Assembly: GCA_943372705.1 (NCBI GenBank)
Contig: CALRZR010000009.1
Coordinates: forward strand, 2,644-66,643
Direction: 5' to 3'
Origin: Opitutus sp. GAS368
Lineage (GTDB): Bacteria; Verrucomicrobiota; Verrucomicrobiia; Opitutales; Opitutaceae
Length of the DNA stretch: 64,000 nucleotides
The translations under genes and the position numbers were made by a program. Of this stretch, positions 44,292 to 60,094 are shown piece by piece. The stretch's first letter is position 1. Each line of letters opens with the position of its first letter. The notes under the pieces were generated by a model, which worked only from the letters and a program-made list of their open reading frames with translations, was not told the DNA's origin and made no database searches.

Positions 44292-44353
44292 ACCGGTAGA
44301 CCGAGTGGCTGCGCTTGCGCGGGGCGCGAGGCGGCGTTCAACTCGGGGTTCCC

Positions 44354-44950
44354 ATGATCGGTCTCCACGAAGGCAAGGGGTCGCCCCTGAAAAAGAAGCA
44401 GGTCGAGCGCGTGTTTGCGCTGCGGATGCACGTGATCGCGTGCCGCCCGGTGATCTGGCGGCGTCTGCTCGTGCGCGAATCGATGTGGCTCTCACGTCTG
44501 CACGACACGATCCAGGTGGCGTTCGACTGGTTCGATTACCAGACGCATGCGTTCAATCTCGACGATTTGCGTTTCGGCAATCCGCTAAAGCGCGAGGAAC
44601 TCACGATCGAGGACGACCGCGATGTGTCGCTCGCCGATCTCGATCTCGAACACCGCGAACGGTTCACCTACGGCTACCATTTCGGCGAGGGCTGGCAGAT
44701 CGAGATCAAGGTCGAAAAGACCGGGGCGGTGGAGAAGGGACTGTTTTATCCGACGTGCATTGGCGGCGAGCGCGCGGGTCCGCCGGAGGATTGCGGCGGG
44801 ATCGAGGCGTTTCACGACATGCTCGCGTGCATCAAGGAACCGGAGACGGAGCTCGGTCGCGAGTGGCTCGAATGGCTGGGGCCCGACTACAATCCCGAGG
44901 CCTGCGATCTGGAGAAGATCAACAAAGCGCTGAAGAAACTCGGAAAGTAA
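44354..44950 (+). CDS. pRiA4b ORF-3-like family protein
   Basis: ATG at residue 14 of ORF 44315..44950. Pattern VFALRMHVIACRPVIWRRLLVRESMWLSRLHDTIQVAFDWFDYQTHAF...CIGGERAGPPEDCGG is characteristic of the PRiA4_ORF3 domain as I remember it. Confidence 0.75.
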   Translation: MIGLHEGKGSPLKKKQVERVFALRMHVIACRPVIWRRLLVRESMWLSRLHDTIQVAFDWFDYQTHAFNLDDLRFGNPLKREELTIEDDRDVSLADLDLEHRERFTYGYHFGEGWQIEIKVEKTGAVEKGLFYPTCIGGERAGPPEDCGGIEAFHDMLACIKEPETELGREWLEWLGPDYNPEACDLEKINKALKKLGK

Positions 44951-45318: not shown

Positions 45319-45332
45319 ACCAGCACACGATT

Positions 45333-45371
45333 CCGGGGCGGAGGAGCGATCCTCCGTCCCGGATTTTTGTT
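45333..45371 (+). terminator. intrinsic terminator
   Basis: 13-bp stem ccggggcggagga / tcctccgtcccgg (one G-U), loop gcga, followed by atttttgtt. Confidence 0.75.
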
Positions 45372-45609: not shown

Positions 45610-47091
45610 TCAGTGCGATTCGGCGAAGCTCGTGATCGAGTGCCACTCGAGGACTTCCTGGAGGAGGGCGCTCTCGGTTTTCAGCACGATGCGTTCGAGG
45701 CTGTTCCACGTCTGGCAGAAGGTGACGCGCTTGCGGCTGTCTTCGAGCATGAGCTGCATTTCGCGGAAGCGGGCGACGCGGCGCTGGAGATCGTTGATCG
45801 AGATGAGCGAGATGAACGACGCGGCGATCACCGGCAGCGAAATTGGCAGGAAATAAAACACGGAGGTTTCGAGCCAATGCGGCACTGCGAAGTGCCCGGT
45901 ATGGCAGACGGCGTAAGCGAGCGTGCAGGCCATCGCGAGGAGGGTGGCGACCCAGAAACCCATTTTCAGGCGCTTGAAGAGCGGGAGCGCGCGGGCCTCC
46001 TGGCGGCGGTAGTAGGCGAGCTGGTCGTCGATGCGTTTCTCGAGGTAAATGCGGCGAAAATCGTCCATCGGGACGGGCTGCGCGTTGGCGGAGCGGCTGT
46101 GCAAAATGTGCAACGAGCGCGTGAGGCCGCGCACGCCGGGGAGATCGAGATCTTCGAAGAGCGGGGCGGCGCGCGGGAGTCCCCACGTCGCGAGGGCGGA
46201 GCGGCAAAATTCAGCGGCTAGCCGGCACCGCACCCAACTGTGATGCGAGTGGTGGTGATGGTGGAGCACGAGGGCCACGCCGAGAGCGCCGGCGAGGCAG
46301 AGGAGCTTGATCCAGGGAATCGCCATCAGGTGCAGATCGAACGAGAGCGCGCCGGCGGCGATGAGGGTGGCGACGACGTGCAGCGCGACGGTGAGCACGA
46401 TCAGGCGGCGAAACTGCGGGGCGCCGTGGCTCGCGGCGAAATCGCATTTTTGCTGAAACGCGAAGATGTGGCCGGGGGCTTTGAACGGATTCTCGCCCCA
46501 GCCGGCGGACTTGGCGGGGAGCTGGTTCAGTTTGGCGAGCGTCTGGTCGGTGCGGTCGAGTTTGTCGAAATTATCGCGGCGAACTTCGAGCGTGTGGGCG
46601 TCGATCACGACGACCGGTTTACCGAGCGAACGCGCGTAGCCGACGACATCGGCGGTGCCGCCTTTACCGCGGGCCGGCTGGCCGTCCCAGACGGCGAGGA
46701 GCACGTCGGCGCCGTTGACGGTCTCCATGCCGCAGTCGAGGTAGGCGTCTTCGCGCGTGCCATTTTCGGTGATCACGCGGACGTGCTCGGCGTGGGTGAG
46801 CATCGTCTCGACGGCGTTCCAGTCGGCGGCGGAAAAGTCTTTTTGGAATTCGGCTTTGGGCAGCGGGAGGATCGCGTGCCACGAGAGACCGAGCGCGCGG
46901 GCCTGGGCGACGAACATCTGGTCGCTGCCGTCGGCGACGGAGGAGAGCGCGAGCCACTCGCCCGGGGCTTCGGCGCGGAGCGATTCAAGGGCGGCGGTGA
47001 GGGCGCGCGCGACCCCGGCGGGATCGGCCACGGAACGGTGACCGGAAAATCCGACGACGTGAAACAGCGGCAGTTCGGAGGACTCGCTCAT
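45610..47091 (-). CDS. SLOG (YpsA/DprA-LOG-like) domain protein fused to two successive 2TM modules, the distal one SLATT/DUF4231-like
   Basis: ORF 45610..47154. ATG starts at 47091 or 47106; the listed start at 47154 is TTG. N-terminal Rossmann-like pattern: LFHVVGFSGHR...LSSVADGSDQMFVAQARALG...ILPLP...ADVLLAVWDGQPARGKGGTADVVGYA. TM pair 1 (LIVLTVALHVVATLIAAGALSF / WIKLLCLAGALGVALVL) is followed by WVRCRLAAEFCRS. The segment LAYYRRQEARALPLFKRLKMGF is followed by TM pair 2 and an amphipathic C-terminal helix. Confidence 0.8.
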   Translation of the reverse strand: MSESSELPLFHVVGFSGHRSVADPAGVARALTAALESLRAEAPGEWLALSSVADGSDQMFVAQARALGLSWHAILPLPKAEFQKDFSAADWNAVETMLTHAEHVRVITENGTREDAYLDCGMETVNGADVLLAVWDGQPARGKGGTADVVGYARSLGKPVVVIDAHTLEVRRDNFDKLDRTDQTLAKLNQLPAKSAGWGENPFKAPGHIFAFQQKCDFAASHGAPQFRRLIVLTVALHVVATLIAAGALSFDLHLMAIPWIKLLCLAGALGVALVLHHHHHSHHSWVRCRLAAEFCRSALATWGLPRAAPLFEDLDLPGVRGLTRSLHILHSRSANAQPVPMDDFRRIYLEKRIDDQLAYYRRQEARALPLFKRLKMGFWVATLLAMACTLAYAVCHTGHFAVPHWLETSVFYFLPISLPVIAASFISLISINDLQRRVARFREMQLMLEDSRKRVTFCQTWNSLERIVLKTESALLQEVLEWHSITSFAESH

Positions 47092-47185
47092 GCGGCAGGA
47101 GGTCATCGCACGCCGGCCCGCGCGGTGCGTCAACGGAGAAGCCGACGGAGACAAAAGATCCGCGACAGGCGCAGCGCGGGCGGGG

Positions 47186-47551
47186 TCAGAAATTCGCGGG
47201 CGTCGCGGGAGCTGGTTTGCCTGGCGCGGGGTTGGAGCGTTTGGATGGATCCGAGTAGTTCGGCGACATCGGGAAGAACGGCGCGATGACGTCGATCACG
47301 GGCTTCAGGAACGCGGGTTCGGTGCGCGTGAACGTCCAGTGGAGCGTGAGCATGCCGAAGATCAGGATCAAAATGAAGGCGACGAGACCCGGGTTGATGC
47401 CTTTCAGGAAGCGGTAGAAACTCAGTGTCATCATCACCGCGAAGAAGGCGCAGATGATGGTGAGAAACGCGTGTTCGGCGAGGAGCGGCTGGATGAGTTT
47501 CCAGAACGAATCCCAAGCTTTGGCGAGTGGTGAGAGGTCGACGTCTTTCAA
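47186..47551 (-). CDS. small 2TM membrane protein of unknown function
   Basis: 121-aa ORF with two hydrophobic helices (FLTIICAFFAVMMTLSF, LVAFILILIFGMLTL) and a Pro-rich tail. Lies 32-95 nt upstream of and co-oriented with the SLOG-SLATT gene. Confidence 0.6.
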   Translation of the reverse strand: MKDVDLSPLAKAWDSFWKLIQPLLAEHAFLTIICAFFAVMMTLSFYRFLKGINPGLVAFILILIFGMLTLHWTFTRTEPAFLKPVIDVIAPFFPMSPNYSDPSKRSNPAPGKPAPATPANF

Positions 47552-47778
47552 GGTGGCGGCCGGGAAGGTGTCGCAGACGTGCGGGGGGCGTCAAAAAAGA
47601 ACTTATACGCGGGGGTTGCAGCGAGTGCGTAGAAAACAGTGTGCTTCGGCGTGGGTGGTGCGAGAGTGGAAAACAATCTTGTGACGCAACGGAGGCTGGC
47701 GGTCGGGGGCGGCATGGGCATTGCTCCGTCAGCGCAATCCGGGCTATCCCACCCCTCCCGGAGTCGCTCTTTTGCCAC

Positions 47779-49971
47779 ATGAACGTCCCCGCGCCGTCAT
47801 CGCCTGCGTCTGCCCCTGTGTCGGGGATCGGCGCGACCGACGGTGCGAAACGCTATCGGGTGTTCTTAAGTTACAGCCATGCGGACACAAAGTGGGCGCG
47901 GTGGGTGATGCGGAGGTTGGAAGGCTGGCGGGTGCCGAAACGTCTGCACGGACGGATGGCGCCGATCGGCGAGGTGGGTGCGCGAATTGCGCCGGTGTTT
48001 CGGGATCGCGACGAATTGCCGACGACGAGCGATCTCGGCGAGTCGATCCGGGCGGCGCTGCGGGAGTCGGCGACGCTCGTGGTGATCTGTTCGCCGGCGG
48101 CGGCGAAGTCGCGGTGGGTGCGGGAGGAGATCGTGGCGTTTAAGCGGCTGCACGGCGAGCGGCGGGTGTTTGGGTTTATCGTGAGCGGCGAGCCCAAGGT
48201 GGAGGGGACGGACGAGGATTGTTTTTCACCGGCGTTGCGCGCGGAGATCGGGGCCGACGGCGAGCTGTCGGCGCGGCCGGCGGAGATCGTGGCGGCGGAT
48301 GCGCGGGTAACGGGTGACGGGAAAGAGGTGGCGCTCGTGCGGTTGCTGGCCGGGCTGTTGGGCGTGGGCTTCGACGAATTGCGGCAACGCGAGCAGGCGC
48401 GGCGGCTGCGGCGGATGACGTGGATCGCGGCGGGATCGGCGGTCGGGATGGCGGTGATGTTCGGGCTGGCGGTGGCGGCGTGGCGGGCGCGGAACGATGC
48501 GCAGCGGCGGCAGGCGAACGCGGATGATTTGCTGACGTTCATGCTGGGCGATCTGCGGGACGAGTTGAAGAAAATCGGGCGGCTCAGCGTGCTCGACGCC
48601 GTGGGGGCAAAGGCGATGGCCTATTTCGACTCGCTCGATGTGCGCGACGCGTCGGACACGGCCCTGGCGCGGCAGGCCACGGCGCTTACGCAAATCGGTC
48701 AGAACCGGCTCGACCAGGTGCGGTATGCGGAGGCGTCGGTGGCGTTTGCCACCGCGTATGAGCGCGCCGCGGCGCTGGTGAAGCGCAATCCGGCGAACAA
48801 GGACATGTGGTTTGAACGCGGGCGGGCAGAACACTGGCTGGGCTACACGGATTTGCAGCGGCGGGAGTTGGTGTCGGCAGGCAGGTGGTTCGCAAGATAC
48901 CGGGACACGGCAAGGGGGCTCTGGGAGTTGGACCGCGCGGACGCGCGGAGCCGGCATGAGGTGGCCTACGCGCAGCAGAGTCTGGCGGTATTGAAAGTGG
49001 AATTGGGCGACTACGCCGACGCCCGGGCGAGTTTCGTCGCGGAGCGGGAAATGCTTGAGCGCCTGTCGGCCGCCAAGCCGAGTGATTTGCAGGTGAGGTT
49101 CGAGTTGTCGGTGAATGACTCGTGGCTGGGGGTGACCGCCGAGCGCCGGGGTGAATATGCGGAGGCGGTGGAACATTTTGGCCGGGCGGCCGGCACGATG
49201 GAAGCCGTGATCGCGGAGGAGCCTGGCACGGCGTTTTGGCGATTTGAATGTGCGGACCGCTACTCGCACCAAGGCATTGTGCTCGGTTGCACCGGGCGGC
49301 ATGCGGAATCGCGGCGGGCGTTGCACCGGGCGCAAGAACTGATCGGTCCGTTGGCGGCCAACGATCCGCAGAACCGGAATGCTTCCGCCCGCGTCGCCGC
49401 CGCGGGAATTGTGCAGGCGGCGTCGGCGCTGGCGGAAAGCGATTGGACGGAGGCGGCCCGGCTGTTGGAAGCTTCCCGGCGGCGGTTGGAACCGATCGTG
49501 GCCGATGAGCCCACCTCGCCGACGAACGCCAATTTTCTGGTGCGGGCTTGGCGGATCGAGGCGTTGCTGCGGCTGGCGCAAGGACGGACCGATGCCGGCG
49601 AGGCGGCGGCGCGCGCGATCGTTTTGGTGCAGCCGTTTCTGACGAAGGAAACGGCGGGTGATCGAATTGTGCGGACGGAATCGGCCGAGGCCTATTTGGT
49701 GGCGGGGCTGGTGGCGGACCGGGCCGGGAACGAGGAGGCTGCGCGACAGCACTGGCAGCAATCGCTGGACCTGCTCGACCCGGACTGGCTCAACTCGTGC
49801 CACTGGCGGCTGCTCGATCCTGCCGCGCGGGCCTTGATCCTGCTCAAACGATACGACGAGGGTAGGTCGCTGATCGATCGTCTGAATCGGCTTGGCTACC
49901 GACCGCTGTCGCCGTGGCCGGAACCGGCTGCCCATTTTCCCGCTCCGTCTAACCTAAATCCCCAAAAATAA
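47779..49971 (+). CDS. TIR-domain protein with single TM segment and C-terminal TPR-like solenoid
   Basis: ATG at residue 85 of ORF 47527..49971 (MNVPAPSS...). TIR pattern: YRVFLSYSHADTKWARWVMRRLEG...APVFRDRDELPTTSDLGESIRAALRESATLVVICSPAAAKSRWVREEIVAF. TM segment WIAAGSAVGMAVMFGLAVAAW. About 430 aa of helical repeats. Confidence 0.85.
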   Translation: MNVPAPSSPASAPVSGIGATDGAKRYRVFLSYSHADTKWARWVMRRLEGWRVPKRLHGRMAPIGEVGARIAPVFRDRDELPTTSDLGESIRAALRESATLVVICSPAAAKSRWVREEIVAFKRLHGERRVFGFIVSGEPKVEGTDEDCFSPALRAEIGADGELSARPAEIVAADARVTGDGKEVALVRLLAGLLGVGFDELRQREQARRLRRMTWIAAGSAVGMAVMFGLAVAAWRARNDAQRRQANADDLLTFMLGDLRDELKKIGRLSVLDAVGAKAMAYFDSLDVRDASDTALARQATALTQIGQNRLDQVRYAEASVAFATAYERAAALVKRNPANKDMWFERGRAEHWLGYTDLQRRELVSAGRWFARYRDTARGLWELDRADARSRHEVAYAQQSLAVLKVELGDYADARASFVAEREMLERLSAAKPSDLQVRFELSVNDSWLGVTAERRGEYAEAVEHFGRAAGTMEAVIAEEPGTAFWRFECADRYSHQGIVLGCTGRHAESRRALHRAQELIGPLAANDPQNRNASARVAAAGIVQAASALAESDWTEAARLLEASRRRLEPIVADEPTSPTNANFLVRAWRIEALLRLAQGRTDAGEAAARAIVLVQPFLTKETAGDRIVRTESAEAYLVAGLVADRAGNEEAARQHWQQSLDLLDPDWLNSCHWRLLDPAARALILLKRYDEGRSLIDRLNRLGYRPLSPWPEPAAHFPAPSNLNPQK

Positions 49972-49972
49972 T

Positions 49973-50449
49973 ATGTCCGCCAACGTCAAAAAGACCGCCA
50001 TACTCAATGTCTCCGTTTCGAAATTCCGCCCCGTGGGCGTCGTGCTCACGAGTGCGACACTCGTATTGGAGCCGGGATGCGACAAAAAATATTTCCGGAC
50101 CGACGGCACCAATATTTGGGTCACGATTCCCAAAAAAGCGCCGAAAAATCTGGATATCGAGATCGTCTTCCGGGTCGACGCCATGCTCTACAATTTGGTG
50201 GGAGTGGCGTTCAACAAGACGACCTTCGACCCAAACTCGGAGGGCGACGTGGAGTTCCCCGAAATCACGATCAAACGGAATTCACAGCCGACAATACCGA
50301 TCAATCAAGTGAGCGAGCTGACGGTGAAGGACGCCGATGTCAGCAGCCGGTCCGGCGTGAACTACGATTACTATCTGATGGTCCAACAGGTCTCGGATGG
50401 AGCGATCGGCGTGATCGATCCGCCGATCTCCACGGGCCCGGAACACTGA
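49973..50449 (+). CDS. hypothetical beta-rich protein, translationally coupled to the TIR gene
   Basis: 158-aa ORF starting 1 nt after the TIR gene stop. Visibly A/T-richer than its surroundings. No signal peptide or TM segment. No family recognised. Confidence 0.6.
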   Translation: MSANVKKTAILNVSVSKFRPVGVVLTSATLVLEPGCDKKYFRTDGTNIWVTIPKKAPKNLDIEIVFRVDAMLYNLVGVAFNKTTFDPNSEGDVEFPEITIKRNSQPTIPINQVSELTVKDADVSSRSGVNYDYYLMVQQVSDGAIGVIDPPISTGPEH

Positions 50450-53530: not shown

Positions 53531-54466
53531 TCAGTCGAAGAACGGGAAGAGGCGCTTGAGGGCGGCGCGGTCGGGCTGGGTGCCGTATTCGCAGATCTCG
53601 AAGGCCTCGGCGTGTTTCACGGTGCCGGCGGCGGGGCCGGGATACCACGTGGCGAGTTCTTTCTGGAAACGGGCGGCGATGGCCTGGAAGCGCCGGTGGA
53701 AATTTTGGCGGACCTGGAGCTGGCGGGCGCGTTGGCCGGCGGCGTCGGCGGGGTAGAGCGACGCGTTGCCGTTGGCGCCGCCCTCGGCGAACTGCGAAAC
53801 CATGACGGCGAGGGCATCGAGTTTCCTTTCGATCACGGGGTCGATGGAGATGACGATGTCGGCGCGGGACGGGGCGGGCTTCAGGAAGCGGTCGGTGTAA
53901 TACATGAAGACGGGATTTTTCGTCATCGCGGGCACATCGGGGCAAAAGAACGGGACGGTGACCATGAAGGCGGCGTCTTGGACGAGGACGCCGGTGTAGC
54001 GGTGGTCGGGATGGTAGTCGTTGGTGCGCGGGCCGAGGACGACGTCGGCGTTCCACTCGCGGATGAGGCGCGTGAGCTTGCGGCGGTTTTCGAGCGTGGG
54101 CTCGAGTTCGCCGTCGTGGTTGTCGAGGACGACGCCTTGGATGCCGAGGAGGCGGTGGGCCTCGTCGACCTCGGCTTTGCGGCGGAGGGCGAGGGGGCCG
54201 CCGGCTTCGCGCCAGTGGCCGATGTCACCATTGGTGACGGAGACGAGGAGCACGTGATGGCCGGCAGCGGCCCAGCGCGCGGCGGTGCCGCCGACTTGGA
54301 GTTCGCAGTCATCGGGGTGCGCGCCGAAAGCGATGATGCGGAGCTTGCCGTCGTTGGCGGGTGGCAGCGTGACGCCGGGGATCGCAGCGCGCAGCAGGGG
54401 TGAGGTGGTGAAGGTGAGGACGAGCGCGAGGAGGGCGAGGAGTTGGCGGGTGGGGTGTGAAATCAT
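53531..54466 (-). CDS. PIG-L/LmbE-family deacetylase, secreted
   Basis: ATG at residue 96 of ORF 53531..54751 (MISHPTRQLLALLALVLTFTTSPLLRA). Motif IIAFGAHPDDCELQVGG. Start coordinate derived from ORF-track arithmetic. Confidence 0.8.
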   Translation of the reverse strand: MISHPTRQLLALLALVLTFTTSPLLRAAIPGVTLPPANDGKLRIIAFGAHPDDCELQVGGTAARWAAAGHHVLLVSVTNGDIGHWREAGGPLALRRKAEVDEAHRLLGIQGVVLDNHDGELEPTLENRRKLTRLIREWNADVVLGPRTNDYHPDHRYTGVLVQDAAFMVTVPFFCPDVPAMTKNPVFMYYTDRFLKPAPSRADIVISIDPVIERKLDALAVMVSQFAEGGANGNASLYPADAAGQRARQLQVRQNFHRRFQAIAARFQKELATWYPGPAAGTVKHAEAFEICEYGTQPDRAALKRLFPFFD

Positions 54467-54708
54467 GGGGAGCGGGGTGTGATGCGCACGGTAGCGGCCG
54501 AGCTGTAAACGCCAAGCGGTTTGGCGTGCATCAAGGGGGCACATCGCCCTTGCGCCGAAGCGGGGGCTTCGTGAGCTTCGCCGCCGCCCCACATGCCCGC
54601 AGTGCCGCCCATTGCCTCTCGCGCTGATGTCTTCCGCTCTCCGTCGACCTCGTTGGTCGAAGCAGAGGGGGTTCGGCAGGGCATTTGCTTGAACGGGAGG
54701 CCCTCCGC

Positions 54709-57700
54709 ATGAGCGAGTCATCGAAAGCCGTTTTTCTGAGCTACGCGTCACAAGACGCAGTGGCGGTGGAGCGCATCGCGGAGGCGTTGCGGGCGAGCGG
54801 GGTCGAGGTGTGGTTCGATAAGGACGAACTCGTGGGCGGCGATGCGTGGGATCAGAAGATCCGGCGGCAGATCAAGGAGTGTGCGCTGTTTGTGCCGGTG
54901 ATTTCGGCGAACACCAATGCGCGGGCCGAGGGGTATTTTCGCTTGGAGTGGAAGCTCGCGGTGGATCGTTCGCACCTGATGGCGGATGATGCGCCGTTTT
55001 TGTTTCCCGTGGTGATCGACGACACGAGCGATGCCGCGGCGCGCGTGCCGGATCGGTTTCGCGAGGTGCAGTGGACGCGGCTGAGTGTGAAGGATACGCC
55101 GACCCATTCGGCAAGCTCAGGGCTGGAGATGCTGGCGGTGCGGGTGGGGAAACTTTTGGTCGGGGGCGGGGACGTTCGTAGCGGAAGCCGTGAGGCTTTC
55201 GGGCGGGGGAATGAAACGCTCACGCGCTCCGCTACAAAACGGGGGCCGGCCTGGTTGCGGAATGTCGCGATGATCGGCGGGCTGGCGATCGGGTTGGTGT
55301 ATGCGGTGCGGCCGATGTTTTTCCCTACGGCGTTGCGCGAAAAGAAGTCGGCGGCGACGGCCACGTCTCTGGTGGCACCGGCCGCGAGCGAGGGCGTCAA
55401 ACTCGCGCAGCGGGCCAAGGCGCTCTACGACAAGGCGGGCTTCGGGCGCGACGACCTCGCGCTGGCGGACGAATTTGCGAAGCGCGCGACGGACGCGGAG
55501 CCGACGGTGGCGTTCGTCTGGGGTGTGCGGGCGCACGTGCAGGCGGCGTATCTGTTTCGCGGTTTCGCGGTGGGCGACGAGTTTGTGCAGCGGGCACGGG
55601 ATGCGCAGTCGTTGGCCAACCGGGCGTTGGCGCTCGACGCGAACGAGGCCGAGGCGCTGCTCGCGCAGGGTCGCGTGGCGACCTATCAGCGCGCGTATGT
55701 GCAGGCGGAAGAGATTCTGGCGCGAGGTGTCGCCGCACATCCCGACGATAACCGCATGCGCCGCGCGCTGGGCGTGCTGCTGCGCTACCAAACGAAACGC
55801 GTCGGCGAGGCGCTGGGTGTGTTGCAGGAGGCGGTGCGGCACGATGCGCGTGATGCGCTGGCGCGCTATGACCTCGCGGCGACGTTGGTGCCGGCCTGGA
55901 ACTTTCCCAAGGCGTGGGAGGAATACGAGGCGGCGATCAAGCTGCAGCCGTTTGGAACCTTGCTGCTGAATCAGGCGACGCTGGCGATTCGGTGGAAGGG
56001 AGACGTGGCTGCGATGCGCGCCGTGCTCAACCGGCTCGCGCCGGGCGATCGCGCGGAGGATCGGGCGGTGCACATTGCGATGCTGTGCGGCGTGCTGGAG
56101 CGCGCGCCCGATGCAACGGTGACGGCCGCGGCAATGACGTCGCGCGATTACCTCGAAGACAGCGGATTTGCCGGTCCCAAGGCGTGGTTTCCCGCGTTGG
56201 CCTATCAGCGGTCCGGCAAGGAAAACCTGGCGCGCGCGCAATGGCAGTTGGCGGAAGTGGTATTGCGGGAGCGCATCCGCTCGGACCCGAAGGCCGGGCG
56301 CTATCGGAGCCAGCTCGCACTCACGCTGGCGTGGCTCGGTCGCACCGAGGAGGCGGCGCGAGAGCTGGCGCCCATCGAAGCCGCGTGGCGCGAGCAGATG
56401 GGGCCCGGAGTGGCCCGCGATCTGGCGCGGCACTACGCGGCGTGCGGCGAGGCGGTGCAGGCCGTGATGTATCTGCGGCAGGCGGTGAACCAAGCCTGGT
56501 TTTATACCGATCAGGACATGCGCTTCGATCCGTTCCTCGACAAGGTGCGCGACACGCCGGAGTTCGCGGCTTTGTTGGCGAACATGCCAAAACAACCGGC
56601 GACGATTGTGCCGGTGCCGTATCAAAGGAAGGCACCGGCGGCGGCCACGGCGGAATCGCGCGAGGCGGAGCAGATCGTGACGCAGGTTTACGCGATGTTG
56701 GCGAAGGTGGGCTATACGCGGGAGAATCTTGCGGTAGCCGAGGAGCAGACGCGGAAGGCCACGGAGCTCGCACCCGGCTCGGCGCGGGCGTGGGCGGCGC
56801 GCGCGCGGGTGCAGGCGGCGTATATCCAGCGGATTTGGGACAACTCGGCCAAGCGGCGACAGGACGCGGAAAATTTTGCCGCGCGGGCGCTGTCGATCGA
56901 TCCCGACGAGGCGGATGCCATGGTCGCGCAGGCATGGGCAGCGGGGCCGCTGAAGAGCGAGGCGCTTTTGCGGCGGGCCATGGAGTTGCGCCCAACCGAG
57001 CCGCTGATCCGGCGGGCGCTGGGCAACGCGTTGCTCAGTCAAGGCCGCGTCGACGAGTCATTGGCGCTGCGCCGGGAAACGGTGCGGTTGTTTCCCGACG
57101 ATGCCCTTTCGCATTACGACCTCGGTTTGTATTACAACAATACCCCGGGGAACGCCGAGCTTGCGCTGGCGAGTATCGAGGCCGCGCTGGCTATCGAGCC
57201 CTTCGCAAGCGCCCTTTTGAACAAAGCGCTGTTGCTGAGTGGCAGTCGCGGTGACTTGCGCGCGGCGCGGCGCGCGATCGAAGCGGTGGAGCCGTCCGAA
57301 CGGGGCGAAGATCGGGCGGTGAGCACGGCGATGTGGCTCGGTCTGCTGGAGGGTGATCCGGAGCGGGTCAGGGCGGCAGCGGCGTGGTCGGCGCGGCCGT
57401 ATTTCGAAGACATTTTTTTCCGCGGGCCGAAAGCCTGGATGCTGGCCCATGCGCAGCGACGCGGCGGGAAAGGAACACTCGCCCGACTCCAGTGGGAGGA
57501 AGCGGAGGCGATTTTGCGGGAACGACTGCGTGAAAAACCGACCGATGTGGCGGAAAGAGGGCGGCTGAGCGTCACGCTCGTGTGGTTGGGTCGAGGAGCG
57601 GAAGCGGCGGCGGAAATTGCGACTCTGGACGGTGCCGCACGCGAAGTGAACGACTGGACGCTCAACGTCCTGGCGGCTCAACTCTACGCCGGGCTGGGCG

Positions 57701-57864
57701 ACGCGGCGAAGGCCGTGCCGTTCCTGCGGAAGGCGCTCAACGTCCGCTACACGCTCACCGATCGCACGCTCCCGCTCGATCCGTGGTGGGACAAGTTGCG
57801 CGGGCAGCCGGAGTTTGAGGCGCTACTCGCGGAGGCGAAAGCGCGGGTGGAGGCGAAGAAGTAG
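54709..57864 (+). CDS. TIR-domain protein with TM segment and two tandem copies of a large TPR-like module
   Basis: ATG at residue 9 of ORF 54685..57864 (the listed start is TTG). TIR pattern: KAVFLSYASQDAVAVERIAEALRASGVEVWFDKDELVGGDAWDQKIRRQIKECALFVPVISANTNARAEGYFRLEWKLA. TM segment VAMIGGLAIGLVYAV. Two paralogous modules of about 400 aa. Confidence 0.85.
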   Translation: MSESSKAVFLSYASQDAVAVERIAEALRASGVEVWFDKDELVGGDAWDQKIRRQIKECALFVPVISANTNARAEGYFRLEWKLAVDRSHLMADDAPFLFPVVIDDTSDAAARVPDRFREVQWTRLSVKDTPTHSASSGLEMLAVRVGKLLVGGGDVRSGSREAFGRGNETLTRSATKRGPAWLRNVAMIGGLAIGLVYAVRPMFFPTALREKKSAATATSLVAPAASEGVKLAQRAKALYDKAGFGRDDLALADEFAKRATDAEPTVAFVWGVRAHVQAAYLFRGFAVGDEFVQRARDAQSLANRALALDANEAEALLAQGRVATYQRAYVQAEEILARGVAAHPDDNRMRRALGVLLRYQTKRVGEALGVLQEAVRHDARDALARYDLAATLVPAWNFPKAWEEYEAAIKLQPFGTLLLNQATLAIRWKGDVAAMRAVLNRLAPGDRAEDRAVHIAMLCGVLERAPDATVTAAAMTSRDYLEDSGFAGPKAWFPALAYQRSGKENLARAQWQLAEVVLRERIRSDPKAGRYRSQLALTLAWLGRTEEAARELAPIEAAWREQMGPGVARDLARHYAACGEAVQAVMYLRQAVNQAWFYTDQDMRFDPFLDKVRDTPEFAALLANMPKQPATIVPVPYQRKAPAAATAESREAEQIVTQVYAMLAKVGYTRENLAVAEEQTRKATELAPGSARAWAARARVQAAYIQRIWDNSAKRRQDAENFAARALSIDPDEADAMVAQAWAAGPLKSEALLRRAMELRPTEPLIRRALGNALLSQGRVDESLALRRETVRLFPDDALSHYDLGLYYNNTPGNAELALASIEAALAIEPFASALLNKALLLSGSRGDLRAARRAIEAVEPSERGEDRAVSTAMWLGLLEGDPERVRAAAAWSARPYFEDIFFRGPKAWMLAHAQRRGGKGTLARLQWEEAEAILRERLREKPTDVAERGRLSVTLVWLGRGAEAAAEIATLDGAAREVNDWTLNVLAAQLYAGLGDAAKAVPFLRKALNVRYTLTDRTLPLDPWWDKLRGQPEFEALLAEAKARVEAKK

Positions 57865-57960
57865 ACGGCGGAAAACGGCTGGCCTCGGCGCGTTGCGGCG
57901 ACGTGCGCGGGGCCGGCGACAGTTGGGTGAAAGCAGCGGTGCTGCGCCAGAGCCAAACCA

Positions 57961-57986
57961 GCGGCTTGAGGTCAAGCCGCTCCACC
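57961..57986 (-). repeat. REP-like hairpin (GTGG-head type)
   Basis: gcggcttg-aggt-caagccgc-tccacc. Same architecture as the 1979 family, with compensatory stem changes. Confidence 0.6.
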
Positions 57987-58000
57987 TTCAGAGAGGACGG

Positions 58001-60094
58001 ATGCGTAAATCATCTGGTTTTATCGTAAGTGTTTTGGCGTTGGCTTGGTCGGCGGGGCTCGCCCAACCCCGTCCGGTGGAACTTGAGGATTTGTTTCGGC
58101 TGAAGCGGGTGGCTGATCCGCAGATTTCGCCGGATGGGAAGCGCGTCGCCTATGTGGTGACCGAGGTATTGAAGGCGGAGAACCGGACGAATGCGGATAT
58201 CTGGATCGTGAACGCGGACCCTTCGGCGGGCTCAGGGCAGGCGGGTGGCGAACCGCGGCGGCTGACGGCGTCGCCGAAACGCGATGCGCATCCGCGGTGG
58301 TCGCCGGACGGAAAGTGGATCGCGTTTGAATCCGCGCGCGACGGCGTGCCGCAGATTTTCCTGCTACCGGTGGACGGCGGCGAGGCGAAGAAGCTCACGA
58401 CGATTTCCACGGGCGCGGGGCAGGCGATTTGGGCGCCGGACGGAAAGTCGCTCGCGTTTGTGTCGGCGGTGTTTCCGGAGTTTTCGGCGAAACCGTATGC
58501 GGAAGCCGACAAGGCCAACAAGGCGAAGCTCGATGCGCGTGAGAACAGCAAGGTGAAGGCGCGGGTGATCGACAAACTGCTCTACCGGCACTGGGACTCG
58601 TGGGTCGACGACCTGCGTCAGCAAATTTTCGTCGTGAAGGTGAAAGCGGACGGCACGGCCGACGGCGAGCCGCGCAATGTGACGCCGGGTGAAAATGACG
58701 CGGTGCCGACTTCGAGCACGTTCAGCGCGGGCGATGAATTTGCGTGGTCGCCGGACGGGACGGAGATCGTGTTTTCCGCGCCGCCGCTGCCGATCCGCGA
58801 GCAGGCGTGGCGCACGAACCACGATGTGTGGTTGGTGAAGCTCGCGACAGGTGAGCGGAAGAATCTCACGGCGGCGAATGCGGCGGCGGATGGTCTGCCA
58901 CGGTTTTCGCCGGACGGAAAAACGCTCGCGTATCGCGCGCAGGCGCGGGCGGGCTTCGAGGCGGACAAGTGGGATTTGTGGTTGCTCGACCGCGCGAGCG
59001 GGCAGCGGCGCAATGTCACGGCCGCGTGGGCGGGCTCGGTGGACAACTATGTGTGGTCCCCGGACGGGCAGACGATTTTCCTCGAAGGACAGGAAAAGGG
59101 GCGCGCGCCGCTGTGGAGTGTGCCGGTGGCGGGCGGCGAGGTGAAACGGCTCTTCGATGACGGCGTGAATCACGAAATTTCCGTGTCGCCGGACGGGCGT
59201 TGGCTGGCGTTCACCGGACAACGGCTAACGATGCCGGGCACGATCACGCGGTTTCGTCTGGGCGAGAAGGCACCGCAGCCGCTGGCGTTGACGAATGCGG
59301 CGGCGCTGTCGCAGGTGAAATTCGGCGCGGTCGATTCCGTGACCGTGAGTGGCGCGGGCGGCACGCCGGTGCAGATGTGGATCGTGAAGCCGCCGCAGTT
59401 TGAGGCGGGCAAAAAATATCCGCTCGTTTTTTGGGTGCACGGCGGGCCGCAGAGTGCGTTTCTCGACTCGTGGTCGGTGCGGTGGAACGCGCAGCTGTGG
59501 GCGGCGCAGGGCTACGTGATTGCGCTGCCGAATCCGCGTGGCTCGACGGGCTTTGGGCAGAAGTTCACCGACGAAATCTCACACGATTGGGGCGGGAAGG
59601 TGTTTGAGGATCTGATGGCGTGTCTCTCGCACTTGGAGAAACAGCCCTACATCGACACGACGCGCATGGCGGCGGCGGGGGCGAGCTACGGCGGCTACAT
59701 GATGAACTGGTTTCAGGGCCACACTGACAAATTCAAGACGCTCGTCACGCACTGCGGCGTCTACGATTTCGTGAGCATGTATGGGACGACGGAGGAGACG
59801 TGGTTCGACGAGTGGGACCACGGGATTCCGTGGGAGAATCCGGACTTCGAAAAATGGTCGCCGCACAAACACGCGGCGAAATTCAAGACGCCGAATTTGA
59901 TCATCCACAACGAACTCGATTTCCGCGTGCCGATTGGGCAGGGGCTGAGTTTGTTTACGACGCTGCAGCGGAAAGGCGTGCCGTCGAAGTTGCTGTATTT
60001 CCCCGATGAAGGTCACTGGGTGCTGAAGCCGCAGAACAGCGAGCTGTGGCACACGTCGGTGTTTGAATGGCTCGCGGGGTATTTGAAGAAGTAG
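58001..60094 (+). CDS. S9-family serine peptidase (prolyl oligopeptidase / acylaminoacyl-peptidase-like) with N-terminal beta-propeller
   Basis: ATG at residue 63 of ORF 57815..60094 (MRKSSGFIVSVLALAWSAGLA). Propeller repeats (ISPDGKRVAY, WSPDGKWIAF, WAPDGKSLAF...). Nucleophile elbow GASYGGYM. Confidence 0.9.
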   Translation: MRKSSGFIVSVLALAWSAGLAQPRPVELEDLFRLKRVADPQISPDGKRVAYVVTEVLKAENRTNADIWIVNADPSAGSGQAGGEPRRLTASPKRDAHPRWSPDGKWIAFESARDGVPQIFLLPVDGGEAKKLTTISTGAGQAIWAPDGKSLAFVSAVFPEFSAKPYAEADKANKAKLDARENSKVKARVIDKLLYRHWDSWVDDLRQQIFVVKVKADGTADGEPRNVTPGENDAVPTSSTFSAGDEFAWSPDGTEIVFSAPPLPIREQAWRTNHDVWLVKLATGERKNLTAANAAADGLPRFSPDGKTLAYRAQARAGFEADKWDLWLLDRASGQRRNVTAAWAGSVDNYVWSPDGQTIFLEGQEKGRAPLWSVPVAGGEVKRLFDDGVNHEISVSPDGRWLAFTGQRLTMPGTITRFRLGEKAPQPLALTNAAALSQVKFGAVDSVTVSGAGGTPVQMWIVKPPQFEAGKKYPLVFWVHGGPQSAFLDSWSVRWNAQLWAAQGYVIALPNPRGSTGFGQKFTDEISHDWGGKVFEDLMACLSHLEKQPYIDTTRMAAAGASYGGYMMNWFQGHTDKFKTLVTHCGVYDFVSMYGTTEETWFDEWDHGIPWENPDFEKWSPHKHAAKFKTPNLIIHNELDFRVPIGQGLSLFTTLQRKGVPSKLLYFPDEGHWVLKPQNSELWHTSVFEWLAGYLKK

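Follow-up and report, generated by a model that had tools for sequence, protein, structure and literature searches.

Gene A of the window (the whole 64,000-nt stretch of DNA analysed here) encodes a SLOG-SLATT protein, and the family to which it belongs, taken together with its TIR-(TM)-TPR partners, is on balance best read as a Thoeris-like module of the predicted 'SLOG + 4TM' class. From its modelled structure, A would be a membrane effector made of a cytoplasmic YpsA-like SLOG domain and two SLATT 2TM modules, with four helices in all. Judging from gene neighbourhoods, functional coupling of TIR genes to the SLOG-SLATT family, an idea put forward for this locus in a first-pass annotation of the sequence, is strongly supported at the level of the family; the TIR-to-A link is weaker inside the window than at that level.

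The four ORFs A to D had been placed correctly in that annotation (Table 1): in two other assemblies with identical C and D, independent gene calls gave proteins of 498, 121, 730 and 158 aa in unchanged order, the 498 aa of A corresponding to an alternative start at 47106. The divergent gap between B and C, estimated at about 227 nt, measures exactly that; it lies nearly entirely inside an indel carrying C and D (left edge at ~47559), and a simple scan of it found no sigma-70-like promoter. The A locus is surrounded by sulfatase, peptidase and PIG-L genes; it is not a defence island, and no defence genes were found in the neighbourhood examined.

Table 1. Features of the A locus, with positions in the window
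Feature	Positions	Strand	Description or basis
Gene A	45610-47091	-	ORF, 493 aa; SLOG(YpsA-like)-SLATT_3-SLATT_1, predicted nucleotide-gated 4TM membrane effector
SLOG domain of A (~aa 1-190)	46522-47091	-	AF2 fold and invariant columns
First 2TM module of A (SLATT_3, aa 214-316)	46144-46452	-	TM 230-248 and 258-276
Second 2TM module of A (SLATT_1, aa 349-483)	45643-46047	-	TM 378-396 and 414-432
Gene B	47186-47551	-	ORF, 121 aa, 2TM, no family
B-C divergent intergenic region	47552-47778	no strand	227 nt
Gene C	47779-49971	+	ORF, 730 aa, TIR-TM-TPR-like
TIR domain of C	~47851-48243	+	Pfam TIR_2
Single TM of C	48424-48480	+	hydrophobic helix; remainder helical/TPR-like
Gene D	49973-50449	+	ORF, 158 aa, soluble; start 1 nt past C
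C-D indel relative to L046	47559-50524	no strand	blastn, window against L046
Gene E	54709-57864	+	ATG at 54709; second TIR-TM-TPR protein
TIR domain of E	54721-55083	+	44-72% (mostly 60-70%) identical to A-flanking TIR of other Opitutaceae
TM of E	55264-55320	+	hydrophobic helix
Second indel relative to L046, containing E	54443-58076		blastn, window against L046

The nature of the N-terminal domain of A emerges from its fold. The AlphaFold (AF2) model of this part had a pLDDT of 93.5 (full-length protein: pLDDT 94.8, pTM 0.90), and its best PDB match with Foldseek was Bacillus subtilis YpsA (2nx2, E 8e-7; TM-score 0.63 normalised to the query and 0.72 to the target). After YpsA came ShosA, DprA, LOG-like proteins, the Moco carrier protein, the ThsA SLOG domain with 3'cADPR, and TRPM2/5. 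The ten PDB matches at E <1e-3 were to YpsA, ShosA, DprA, TM1055 and the Moco carrier protein, which we take to be SLOG-type folds; the SLOG domain of ThsA (E 2e-3), LOG and TRPM2/5 matched at weaker E-values, amid unrelated folds. The SLOG/YpsA-type N-terminus recognised by eye in the first pass is thus borne out by structure, and the comparison with ThsA suggested at the time does find the 3'cADPR-bound form, behind YpsA. Profiles were less telling: no Pfam SLOG model scored above threshold on the A N-terminus, and a profile search against PDB sequences returned no match. Among 26 A-family members, the sub-threshold Pfam matches were Nuc_deoxyrib_tr (10), cpYpsA (7), YAcAr (3) and YpsA (1, E 0.13). 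A tblastn search reached plasmid proteins annotated DUF1273 and DUF4231, the DUF1273 match being at 1e-11. The motifs pointed out initially (GF.GHR, S.A.G.D and G.GGT) are invariant columns of the A family, where the invariant residues are G17-H18-R19, S51/A53/G55/D57, W135 and G144-G145(-T146). Save W135, they fall in the loops behind strands E10-17, E45-50 and E130-134 of the model, where Rossmann-type folds usually bind their ligands; the conserved motifs are pocket-like.

A pocket could also be catalytic. The domain might be a LOG- or nucleoside-2-deoxyribosyltransferase-like N-glycosidase making or destroying a signal, or else the TIR proteins might be NAD+-depleting effectors unrelated to A; we hold both to be highly improbable. 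Nuc_deoxyrib_tr, cpYpsA and YAcAr are the sole sub-threshold Pfam matches of the A N-terminus, and its G.GGT.[DE] motif is similar to the PGGxGTxxE motif of LOG proteins. The SLOG superfamily does hold both enzymes and sensors (PMC9503650). However, it is hard to see why an enzyme would be joined to two SLATT pore modules, a ligand-gated effector agrees with Thoeris types I, II and VII, and the variant with an unrelated A is at odds with the tight, side-specific and co-diverging TIR linkage described below.

The remainder of A consists of two TM-helix pairs (230-276 and 378-432) fused to the SLOG domain. With Pfam, the first module matched SLATT_3 just below the cut-off (26.2 against 26.3 bits) and the second matched SLATT_1 just above it (26.9 against 26.3 bits); the NCBIfam models stayed below their cut-offs (SLATT_1, 34.2 against 41, E 2e-8; SLATT_3, 28.5 against 45, E 1.4e-6). 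Most A homologues carry precomputed PF18181 and/or PF18184 matches, and residues R353, R437, E473, E479 and W483 are invariant in the second module. Of the 'SLATT/DUF4231-like' label initially given to that module, the SLATT half agrees with the SLATT_1 match, whose score is right at the cut-off, and the other half needs correction, the Pfam DUF4231 model giving no match. A PADLOC run, also suggested in the first pass, returned no model fitting A, B or D. Relatives of A at 74-98% identity form more than 120 clusters (90% identity), mostly from Opitutaceae, and the family as a whole counts 5485 representatives. Across Opitutaceae, A occupies a single conserved chromosomal site (67-99% identity in genome loci); in Gammaproteobacteria, it comes directly after atpD-atpC.

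C and E are the only two TIR genes of the window, and both are within 8 kb upstream of A. The TIR-TM-TPR architecture assigned to C holds (Pfam TIR_2, 5.7e-13; ThsB_TIR, 3e-7; weak TPR matches), as does the second copy reported at 54709, which is E (TIR_2, 1.7e-20, and TPR matches). Each has one hydrophobic helix, against four in A, two in B and none in D. A single pass with a large TPR part past the TM would, as predicted from sequence, be a receptor-like topology. The catalytic-Glu motif SRWVREE is present in C, and the catalytic-Glu column is conserved in 21 aligned TIR sequences (C, E and 19 partners). PADLOC ThsB matched gene C at E 0.006 and gene E at 3.8e-4, the better matches of both being to TIRs of other contexts; the NCBIfam Thoeris type III model gave E ~0.02 for both, far below cut-off. 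Among A-linked loci, the closest relatives of C are the operonic partners of Gammaproteobacteria. Partner TIR genes are clustered in arrays of one to three (up to 3-4 in L030). Strains differ in whether they carry them, and outside the TIR domain the proteins diverge rapidly or have been exchanged.

Whether TIR genes accompany A homologues elsewhere was a check proposed in the first pass. An A orthologue is present in 35 genome loci, and 27 of them have TIR genes on one particular side of it. In the Opitutaceae-type loci, the 175 kb of sequence upstream of A contain 30 TIR domains, the 165 kb downstream none. The Steroidobacteraceae-type Gammaproteobacteria have none upstream and 11 HMM matches downstream; in four of these loci a TIR gene with the same orientation as A begins ~30 nt behind it. 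Divergence of the partner TIR domain keeps pace with that of A (mean pairwise identities of 63% and 71%, respectively). Starting from the TIR side, a C-type TIR was present in 80 metagenome loci; 21 of them also had an A-family gene, as did 9 of the 19 with informative flanks, in four gene orders. Flank-specific linkage and metagenome co-occurrence support the proposed TIR-to-SLOG/SLATT coupling, and so does a Caballeronia plasmid that has a SLOG-DUF4231 gene followed by TIR and WD40 protein genes. Farther away, a 38%-identical A homologue adjoins a TIR-TM-WD40 gene, with PLD and patatin genes. Neighbours of distant A homologues include PLD, patatin and AAA_15/DUF3226 genes; of three that were sampled, two adjoined a patatin gene and lacked a TIR neighbour, which speaks against a universal TIR link.

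The situation inside the window is different. A and C are divergent with B between them, and they do not form one operon. A somewhat unlikely reading is that their adjacency is incidental: C-D would be an autonomous module inserted between B and the M16 peptidase gene, C would work with D or with another effector, and A would be served by TIR paralogues elsewhere or by none. Several observations point that way. The C-D indel (~3 kb here versus 228 bp in L046, the closest fully syntenic relative) is absent from L046, L011, L044, L001 and L002. No TIR gene was found in the 8-10 kb upstream of the intact A of L046 (93%), L011 (99%), L001 and L002, nor within 5.4 kb upstream of the intact A of L044: A stays intact and strongly conserved without a nearby TIR gene (its protein is 93% identical to that of L046, over a stretch 85% identical in DNA). 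The ten metagenome loci most similar to C had no A-family gene, six of them having a D-like ORF, and the same absence was noted around full-length C orthologues (46-52% identity) of L052 and L055-L058 in 4-8 kb on each side (1.3 kb upstream for L052). As for D, it has no match in Pfam, NCBIfam, PADLOC, PHROGs or PDB, and its GC (0.55) is below that of its neighbours. D-like ORFs are found directly downstream of C orthologues in six loci (L052, L055, L056, L057, L058 and L060), and share with D the C-terminal motif DG.IGVIDP; to judge from this pattern, D regularly accompanies TIR genes of the C subfamily. On the best reading, C-D is a conserved cassette of its own, made of two genes, that landed next to A.

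Gene B is only found in the closest Opitutaceae relatives of the window. It adjoins M16a in L001 and L046, is separated from A by other genes in L001, L002 and L006, and gave family matches below threshold only. It keeps synteny with the M16 peptidase gene in this lineage alone and is no part of the system. The four-gene cassette of the first-pass annotation is not a unit, B being a syntenic neighbour and C-D an indel absent from the closest relatives of A. Because of these two facts, the accompanying caveat that the TIR adjacency could be coincidental was partly right for C. Several observations speak against an incidental adjacency of A and C. The C-type TIR is the subtype found in operon directly after A in Gammaproteobacteria, it adjoins A-family genes in those 9 of 19 informative metagenome loci, and both TIR genes of the window are on the flank that bears TIR genes in other Opitutaceae. 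A chance landing less than 0.5 kb from a nearly single-copy gene is unlikely unless clustering is selected.

A close described counterpart of the A family is the candidate Thoeris effector 'SLOG and 4TM', found beside TIR (bioRxiv 10.64898/2025.12.03.692087, Table S2 and Fig. 1C), with examples from Streptomyces sp. GKU 895 and Ca. Nitrospira nitrosa COMA1 (effector IMG ids 2691454910 and 2862473379); two such systems gave no phage defence in E. coli (same source). The likeness to A, SLOG plus four TM beside TIR, is matched by description only, and like A this candidate is predicted to respond to a TIR-made signal. Its TIR domains have no significant pairwise similarity to C or E and, unlike these, no reported TM-TPR fusion; unlike the A locus, the examples come from operons of two genes in the vicinity of defence islands. 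When the cognate TIR domain of Nitrospira was used as query, only relatives at 55-64% were returned, none with a SLOG-4TM neighbour.

The absence of phage defence in these two systems also fits a reading in which the TIR-SLOG-SLATT mechanism is the same and serves a vertically inherited physiological signalling, such as envelope/extracytoplasmic sensing or NAD-linked stress control of membrane potential, rather than anti-phage abortive infection. Such a role, which we regard as unlikely, would account for the one conserved site of A across Opitutaceae, its place behind atpD-atpC in Gammaproteobacteria, a neighbourhood without defence genes, and partners whose topology recalls receptors; the YpsA clade has non-defence roles, e.g. 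cell-division inhibition in Bacillus (PMC6459960). Against it, defence is the only setting in which TIR-SLOG coupling and SLATT effectors have been characterised to date, distant A homologues keep company with PLD, patatin and AAA_15/DUF3226 genes, and the arrays, strain-variable presence and fast-diverging or swapped non-TIR parts of the TIR genes make up a typical immune-sensor pattern.

Under the favoured Thoeris-like reading, the cycle would begin with activation of a TIR-TM-TPR protein, for which C, E or both are candidates, as are further paralogues in trans. Its cytoplasmic TIR domain would then turn NAD+ into an ADP-ribose-derived nucleotide, which the SLOG domain of A may bind; binding would make the SLATT helices open or oligomerise, and the inner membrane would be permeabilised or depolarised, so that the cell would stop growing or die. 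All of these steps are predicted, as are the choice of the TIR protein that serves A here and phage infection as a possible trigger. A broader and distinctly doubtful proposal joins these elements into a bacterial counterpart of Toll-like receptors, a core-genome module of Opitutaceae and some Gammaproteobacteria with the TIR-TM-TPR proteins as receptors. Their fast-diverging TPR parts could face the periplasm and sense phage adsorption, envelope damage or a competitor; the signal could cross the membrane to the cytoplasmic TIR, the nucleotide then gating a dedicated SLOG-SLATT channel. Interchangeable arrays of receptor paralogues (C-type and E-type) could converge on one effector, A, the pair could be vertically inherited instead of a mobile defence-island gene pair, and D, with its DG.IGVIDP motif, could be a new accessory factor. 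Should the module work as set out in the favoured reading, it would provide a working example of the predicted 'SLOG + 4TM' Thoeris class, which has so far failed in heterologous tests, and would suggest a cause for the failures: a membrane-anchored, receptor-like TIR, whose trigger may be missing in E. coli. It would show that several interchangeable TIR sensors can serve one SLOG-gated membrane effector, and that TIR nucleotide signalling can be inherited stably, as a chromosomal trait, throughout a bacterial family. It would also bear on the origin of TIR receptor architectures (ectodomain, TM helix, cytoplasmic TIR).

The claim in the first-pass annotation that the sensor-effector combination had not been characterised next to a TIR gene has been overtaken by the tested 'SLOG and 4TM' examples and by the validated type VII Thoeris, in which a TIR (ThsB) makes canonical cADPR for the SLATT effector ThsH. 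The pairing of TIR with SLATT and the 'SLOG and 4TM' candidate class are thus already known; what sets the present case apart is a TIR partner that is anchored in the membrane, resembles a receptor and has a rapidly diverging TPR part, together with the family-wide inheritance of the TIR/A pair at a fixed chromosomal site. Like the A locus, type VII associates a TIR gene with a SLATT membrane effector, thought to oligomerise on the TIR product; SLATT had been predicted by the Aravind group to be a membrane effector regulated by ADPr derivatives (PMC9503650). ThsH is annotated SLATT only, with ligand pockets modelled between SLATT protomers, whereas A has a separate N-terminal SLOG and two SLATT modules and fits no PADLOC model. 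In type I, where the TIR signals through 3'cADPR to SLOG, the SLOG domain of ThsA (SIR2-SLOG) is the receptor of a TIR-made cyclic ADPR isomer, and ThsA structures 7uxs, 6lhx and 8btp are among the structural matches of the A N-terminus. There, the output is a SIR2 NADase, as against a membrane module in A, and ThsB is a small soluble TIR protein, unlike the membrane-anchored C and E; type II has a TM effector. In structure, the SLOG of A resembles YpsA (E 8e-7) more than ThsA (E 2e-3, 8-10% sequence identity), and it has its motif layout in common with the YpsA/DUF1273 clade. YpsA is a stand-alone cytosolic protein tied to cell division, whereas the SLOG of A is fused to a membrane module. 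Type III, with several TIR genes and one SLOG effector, resembles the arrays of 1-3 TIR genes beside A, and the TIR of C is weakly similar to TIR4 of the P. aeruginosa type III system (pairwise E 2e-5).

The first-pass annotation had described four genes around a divergent region, and all four were found as open reading frames at its coordinates: A (SLOG-SLATT_3-SLATT_1 protein), B (2TM protein), C (TIR-TM-TPR protein) and D (a small ORF following C). The intergenic region between B and C is of 227 nt; a simple promoter scan found no sigma-70-like site in it. C and D are identical in two other public assemblies, where independent gene calling recovered all four genes, unchanged in length and order, with an M16 peptidase gene next in both. 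The closest genome-record match of A is OZ257259.1, the 8.86-Mb chromosome of an Opitutaceae MAG (99% protein identity). On the other side of A, a strong hairpin (14-bp stem, of which 10 pairs are G-C) with a T-run after it is probably a terminator; it lies between A and a convergent PRiA4_ORF3 gene, the position of which is kept in six of the loci fetched for comparison (L001, L002, L006, L011, L031 and L046), and no link of this gene to the system was seen. The window has a G+C content of ~65% and a strongly positive GC skew on the + strand (positions 1-64000; G 25283 versus C 16399, (G-C)/(G+C) = +0.21), of identical sign in seven genes checked on both strands; this value seems unusually large for a bacterial chromosome.

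Features of the window and of the comparison loci (L handles: genome or metagenome loci)
Feature	Location	Strand	Remarks	Source
PRiA4_ORF3 gene	44315-44950		plasmid pRiA4b ORF-3-like; convergent to A	
Hairpin	45332-45363		probable terminator	
A	45610-47091	-	493 aa; ATG further upstream at 47106 gives 498 aa	ORF list
B	47186-47551	-	121 aa	ORF list
C	47779-49971	+	730 aa	ORF list
D	49973-50449	+	158 aa	ORF list
E	ATG 54709 to 57864	+	second TIR gene	ORF list
Indel 1, window versus L046	47559-50524		holds C-D; replaces 228 bp of L046	
Indel 2, window versus L046	54443-58076		holds E	
atpDC-linked A orthologue and TIR-TPR gene	L025:6037-9470; L032:6011-9474			
Short divergent TIR partner	L006:6746-7879; L031:6766-7959		377-397 aa	
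Distant A-family member and patatin gene	L036:4715-8568; L038:4404-6958; L039:210-2808			
D-like ORFs	L056:9412-9867; L057:5767-6228; L058:10119-10580		also in L060, L055, L052	
TIR_2 + DUF4062 protein	L057:6491-7975; L058:10633-12327		downstream of C-like/D-like pair	
Split C	L051:2325-4516		176-aa TIR ORF and 554-aa ORF	

The SLATT assignment of A was borne out by Pfam, with matches to SLATT_3 (aa 214-316) and SLATT_1 (aa 349-483), both scoring very close to the gathering cut-off; NCBIfam SLATT models matched below cut-off (E-values 1e-6 to 1e-8). Its four hydrophobic helices are grouped as two pairs. For the N-terminus, annotated as SLOG, no curated SLOG profile rose above threshold, with weak matches only to Nuc_deoxyrib_tr, cpYpsA and YAcAr, but the fold sided with the annotation. 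Since a profile search against PDB sequences gave no significant match, a fold comparison was needed. The AlphaFold model of residues 1-205 (pLDDT 93.5) had B. subtilis YpsA (2nx2) as its best PDB match (E 8e-7), followed by ShosA, DprA, a LOG-like protein, the Moco carrier protein, the ThsA SLOG domain with 3'cADPR and TRPM2/5, all of which, YpsA included, we take to be members of the SLOG superfamily. Judged from this predicted fold, which settles the question, the N-terminus of A is a YpsA-like SLOG domain. It is also tied by tblastn to plasmid proteins annotated DUF1273 (YpsA family) and DUF4231. The motifs quoted in the annotation correspond to invariant columns of the family (G17-H18-R19, S51/A53/G55/D57, W135, G144-G145-T146); in the model they sit in loops following three β-strands, which would be the ligand-binding positions of Rossmann-type domains. 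The full-length model (pLDDT 94.8, pTM 0.90) consists of the SLOG head and then a long helical membrane part; the only PDB matches for the latter, ABC-transporter helices with an rmsd >28 Å, were regarded as spurious. The A family comprises 5485 representatives at 50% clustering, most of them of 470-520 aa with the same layout. A second profile protein search recovered the same Opitutaceae clade again. The association of SLOG with SLATT is said to enter the definition of SLATT by Burroughs et al. in 2015.

The co-localisation of A homologues with TIR genes proved to be both frequent and side-specific. With a TIR profile, 27 of the 35 genome loci encoding an A orthologue (57-99% identity) were found to have flanking TIR genes. 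In loci of the Opitutaceae type, 175 kb of sequence upstream of A contained 30 TIR domains and 165 kb of downstream sequence contained none; most of these loci have a divergent TIR-TM-TPR gene (~770 aa) that starts 100-200 bp from A. The polarity is reversed in Gammaproteobacteria of the Steroidobacteraceae type (no TIR upstream of A, 11 matches downstream): in four gammaproteobacterial loci a co-oriented TIR gene begins ~30 nt downstream of A, and two others have convergent arrays. In L025, a locus checked with Pfam, the A orthologue comes right after atpD-atpC (ATP synthase beta and epsilon) and precedes a TIR-TPR gene, a layout matched by L032 (Steroidobacteraceae-type Gammaproteobacteria). 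Among eight loci with full-length partners, i.e. TIR genes flanking A, the partner TIR domain keeps pace with A in its divergence (mean identity 63% versus 71%); beyond the TM helix, divergence is much faster (41%), with outright replacement in some cases. Seen from the TIR side, an A-family gene adjoins a C-type TIR in 21 of 80 metagenome loci (9 of the 19 with enough flank on both sides), the pairs showing four different gene orders. At the family level, the TIR/SLOG-SLATT neighbourhood is clearly beyond chance.

The TIR link of the A family is not universal. More distant arrangements include a Caballeronia plasmid on which genes for SLOG-DUF4231, TIR and WD40 proteins follow one another in that order, and a 38%-identical A homologue (L036) that belongs to an operon (PLD / A-like / patatin) transcribed divergently from a TIR-TM-WD40 gene. 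A patatin phospholipase gene directly follows three distant members (33-38% identity; L036, L038 and L039); in the available sequence of the last two, no TIR gene was found. The gene preceding the A-family member in L036 is PLDc_2, and AAA_15 and DUF3226 genes occur near distant members.

Over its 64 kb the window has only two TIR genes, C and E, which share a layout in which an N-terminal TIR_2 domain is followed by a single TM helix and then by helical/TPR sequence. Both, as well as 19 aligned partner sequences, have the Glu of the W/F-x-x-x-E motif, which lies in SRWVREE in C and in EGYFRLEW in E and corresponds to the catalytic Glu of TIR NADases; in pairwise comparison with published Thoeris TIR domains, divergence was too great for classification. 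The TIR subtype of C is the one operonic with A in Gammaproteobacteria, and that of E, which lies 7.6 kb from A, is the one flanking A in other Opitutaceae (TIR-domain identity 44-72%, mostly 60-70%). Both genes are on the side of A where its TIR partners are usually found, which favours, without proving, selection for clustering.

What the evidence supports best is a Thoeris-like relay from TIR-TM-TPR to SLOG-SLATT. Upon activation of the TIR-TM-TPR protein, its cytoplasmic TIR domain would turn NAD+ into an ADPR-derived nucleotide; binding of this nucleotide by the YpsA-like SLOG domain of A would make the SLATT helices open or oligomerise, compromising the membrane. The TIR feeding A in this genome could be C, E or paralogues acting in trans. 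All these biochemical steps are modelled on precedent: 3'cADPR acts on the SLOG domain in type I Thoeris, His-ADPR acts on a membrane effector in type II, and cADPR acts on a SLATT effector in type VII (TIR + SLATT), validated in a December 2025 preprint (10.64898/2025.12.03.692087); the Aravind group predicted SLATT to be a membrane effector regulated by ADPr derivatives (PMC9503650).

That preprint also lists 'SLOG and 4TM' adjoining TIR among 29 putative types and reports that two examples gave no defence in E. coli, which supersedes the remark in the first-pass annotation that the combination was not known to have been characterised experimentally next to a TIR gene. By its architecture A is a putative member of this class, and the A clade may explain why the predicted class resisted validation. 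PADLOC 2.0 was run and did not recognise A; one A orthologue bears the JGI name 'conflict system pore-forming effector with SLATT domain'. Features that these descriptions do not include are the fusion of TIR to a TM helix plus an extensive TPR part that diverges fast, the arrays of TIR-TM-TPR sensors beside a single effector, and the vertical inheritance of the A-TIR pair across the family. The receptor-like TIR partners add to the significance of the A clade. Their topology also fits a signalling role of the A-TIR module outside defence, an alternative also kept alive by the fixed chromosomal site of A across the whole family, its position after atpDC in Gammaproteobacteria and the absence of defence neighbours (the surroundings of A showed no defence island in Opitutaceae or Gammaproteobacteria).

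The family-level linkage behind the proposed TIR to SLOG-SLATT relay is well supported, but the coupling is weaker in the window, where C-D and E are indels, and support for a specific link of C to A is moderate. The two indels appear in comparison with L046, the closest relative with full synteny (A 93% identical). In L046, L011 (99%), L044, L001 and L002, A is intact and no TIR gene is present in the available upstream 8-10 kb (5.4 kb for L044); the upstream neighbours are B and M16 peptidases in L046 and include pilin-like, ankyrin/cytochrome, AhpC, β-lactamase and histidine-kinase genes in the four others. Nor is there an A-family gene in the ten metagenome loci that resemble C most closely (full-length orthologues, 46-52% identity). 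A special closeness of the window A to gammaproteobacterial A, which would have explained the gamma-type C by joint transfer, was rejected, the Opitutaceae A proteins all being equidistant from the latter (53-64%). Two loci with A 76-77% identical to that of the window (L006 and L031) have divergent partners about half the usual ~770 aa, which may be intermediates towards partner loss in the window's own sub-lineage.

The interpretation given in the first-pass annotation is supported in part; its four-gene cassette is not supported, B belonging to the chromosomal backbone and C-D being conserved separately. B, for which all family matches were sub-threshold, is present in the closest relatives only and was ruled out as a part of the system; it adjoins the M16 peptidase gene M16a in L001 and L046, and other genes stand between B and A in L001, L002 and L006. 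B is a member of a syntenic backbone, M16b-M16a-B, outside the system. D has no hydrophobic helix, and no family was found for it in Pfam, NCBIfam, PADLOC, PHROGs or PDB sequences. In six of the ten metagenome loci closest to C, a D-like ORF of ~150 aa comes directly after the C orthologue, so that C-D is a separate, conserved cassette. D and these ORFs have a common C-terminal motif, DG.IGVIDP, and form an undescribed family of soluble proteins of ~150 aa, always directly after TIR-TM-TPR genes of the C subfamily. In L057 and L058 the C-D cassette is followed by a TIR-DUF4062 protein, giving a cluster of three genes, two of them TIR genes, that lacks an A-family member. In L051, a metagenome assembly with an identical D, C is split into two ORFs, which reflects either a frameshift error or a pseudogene.
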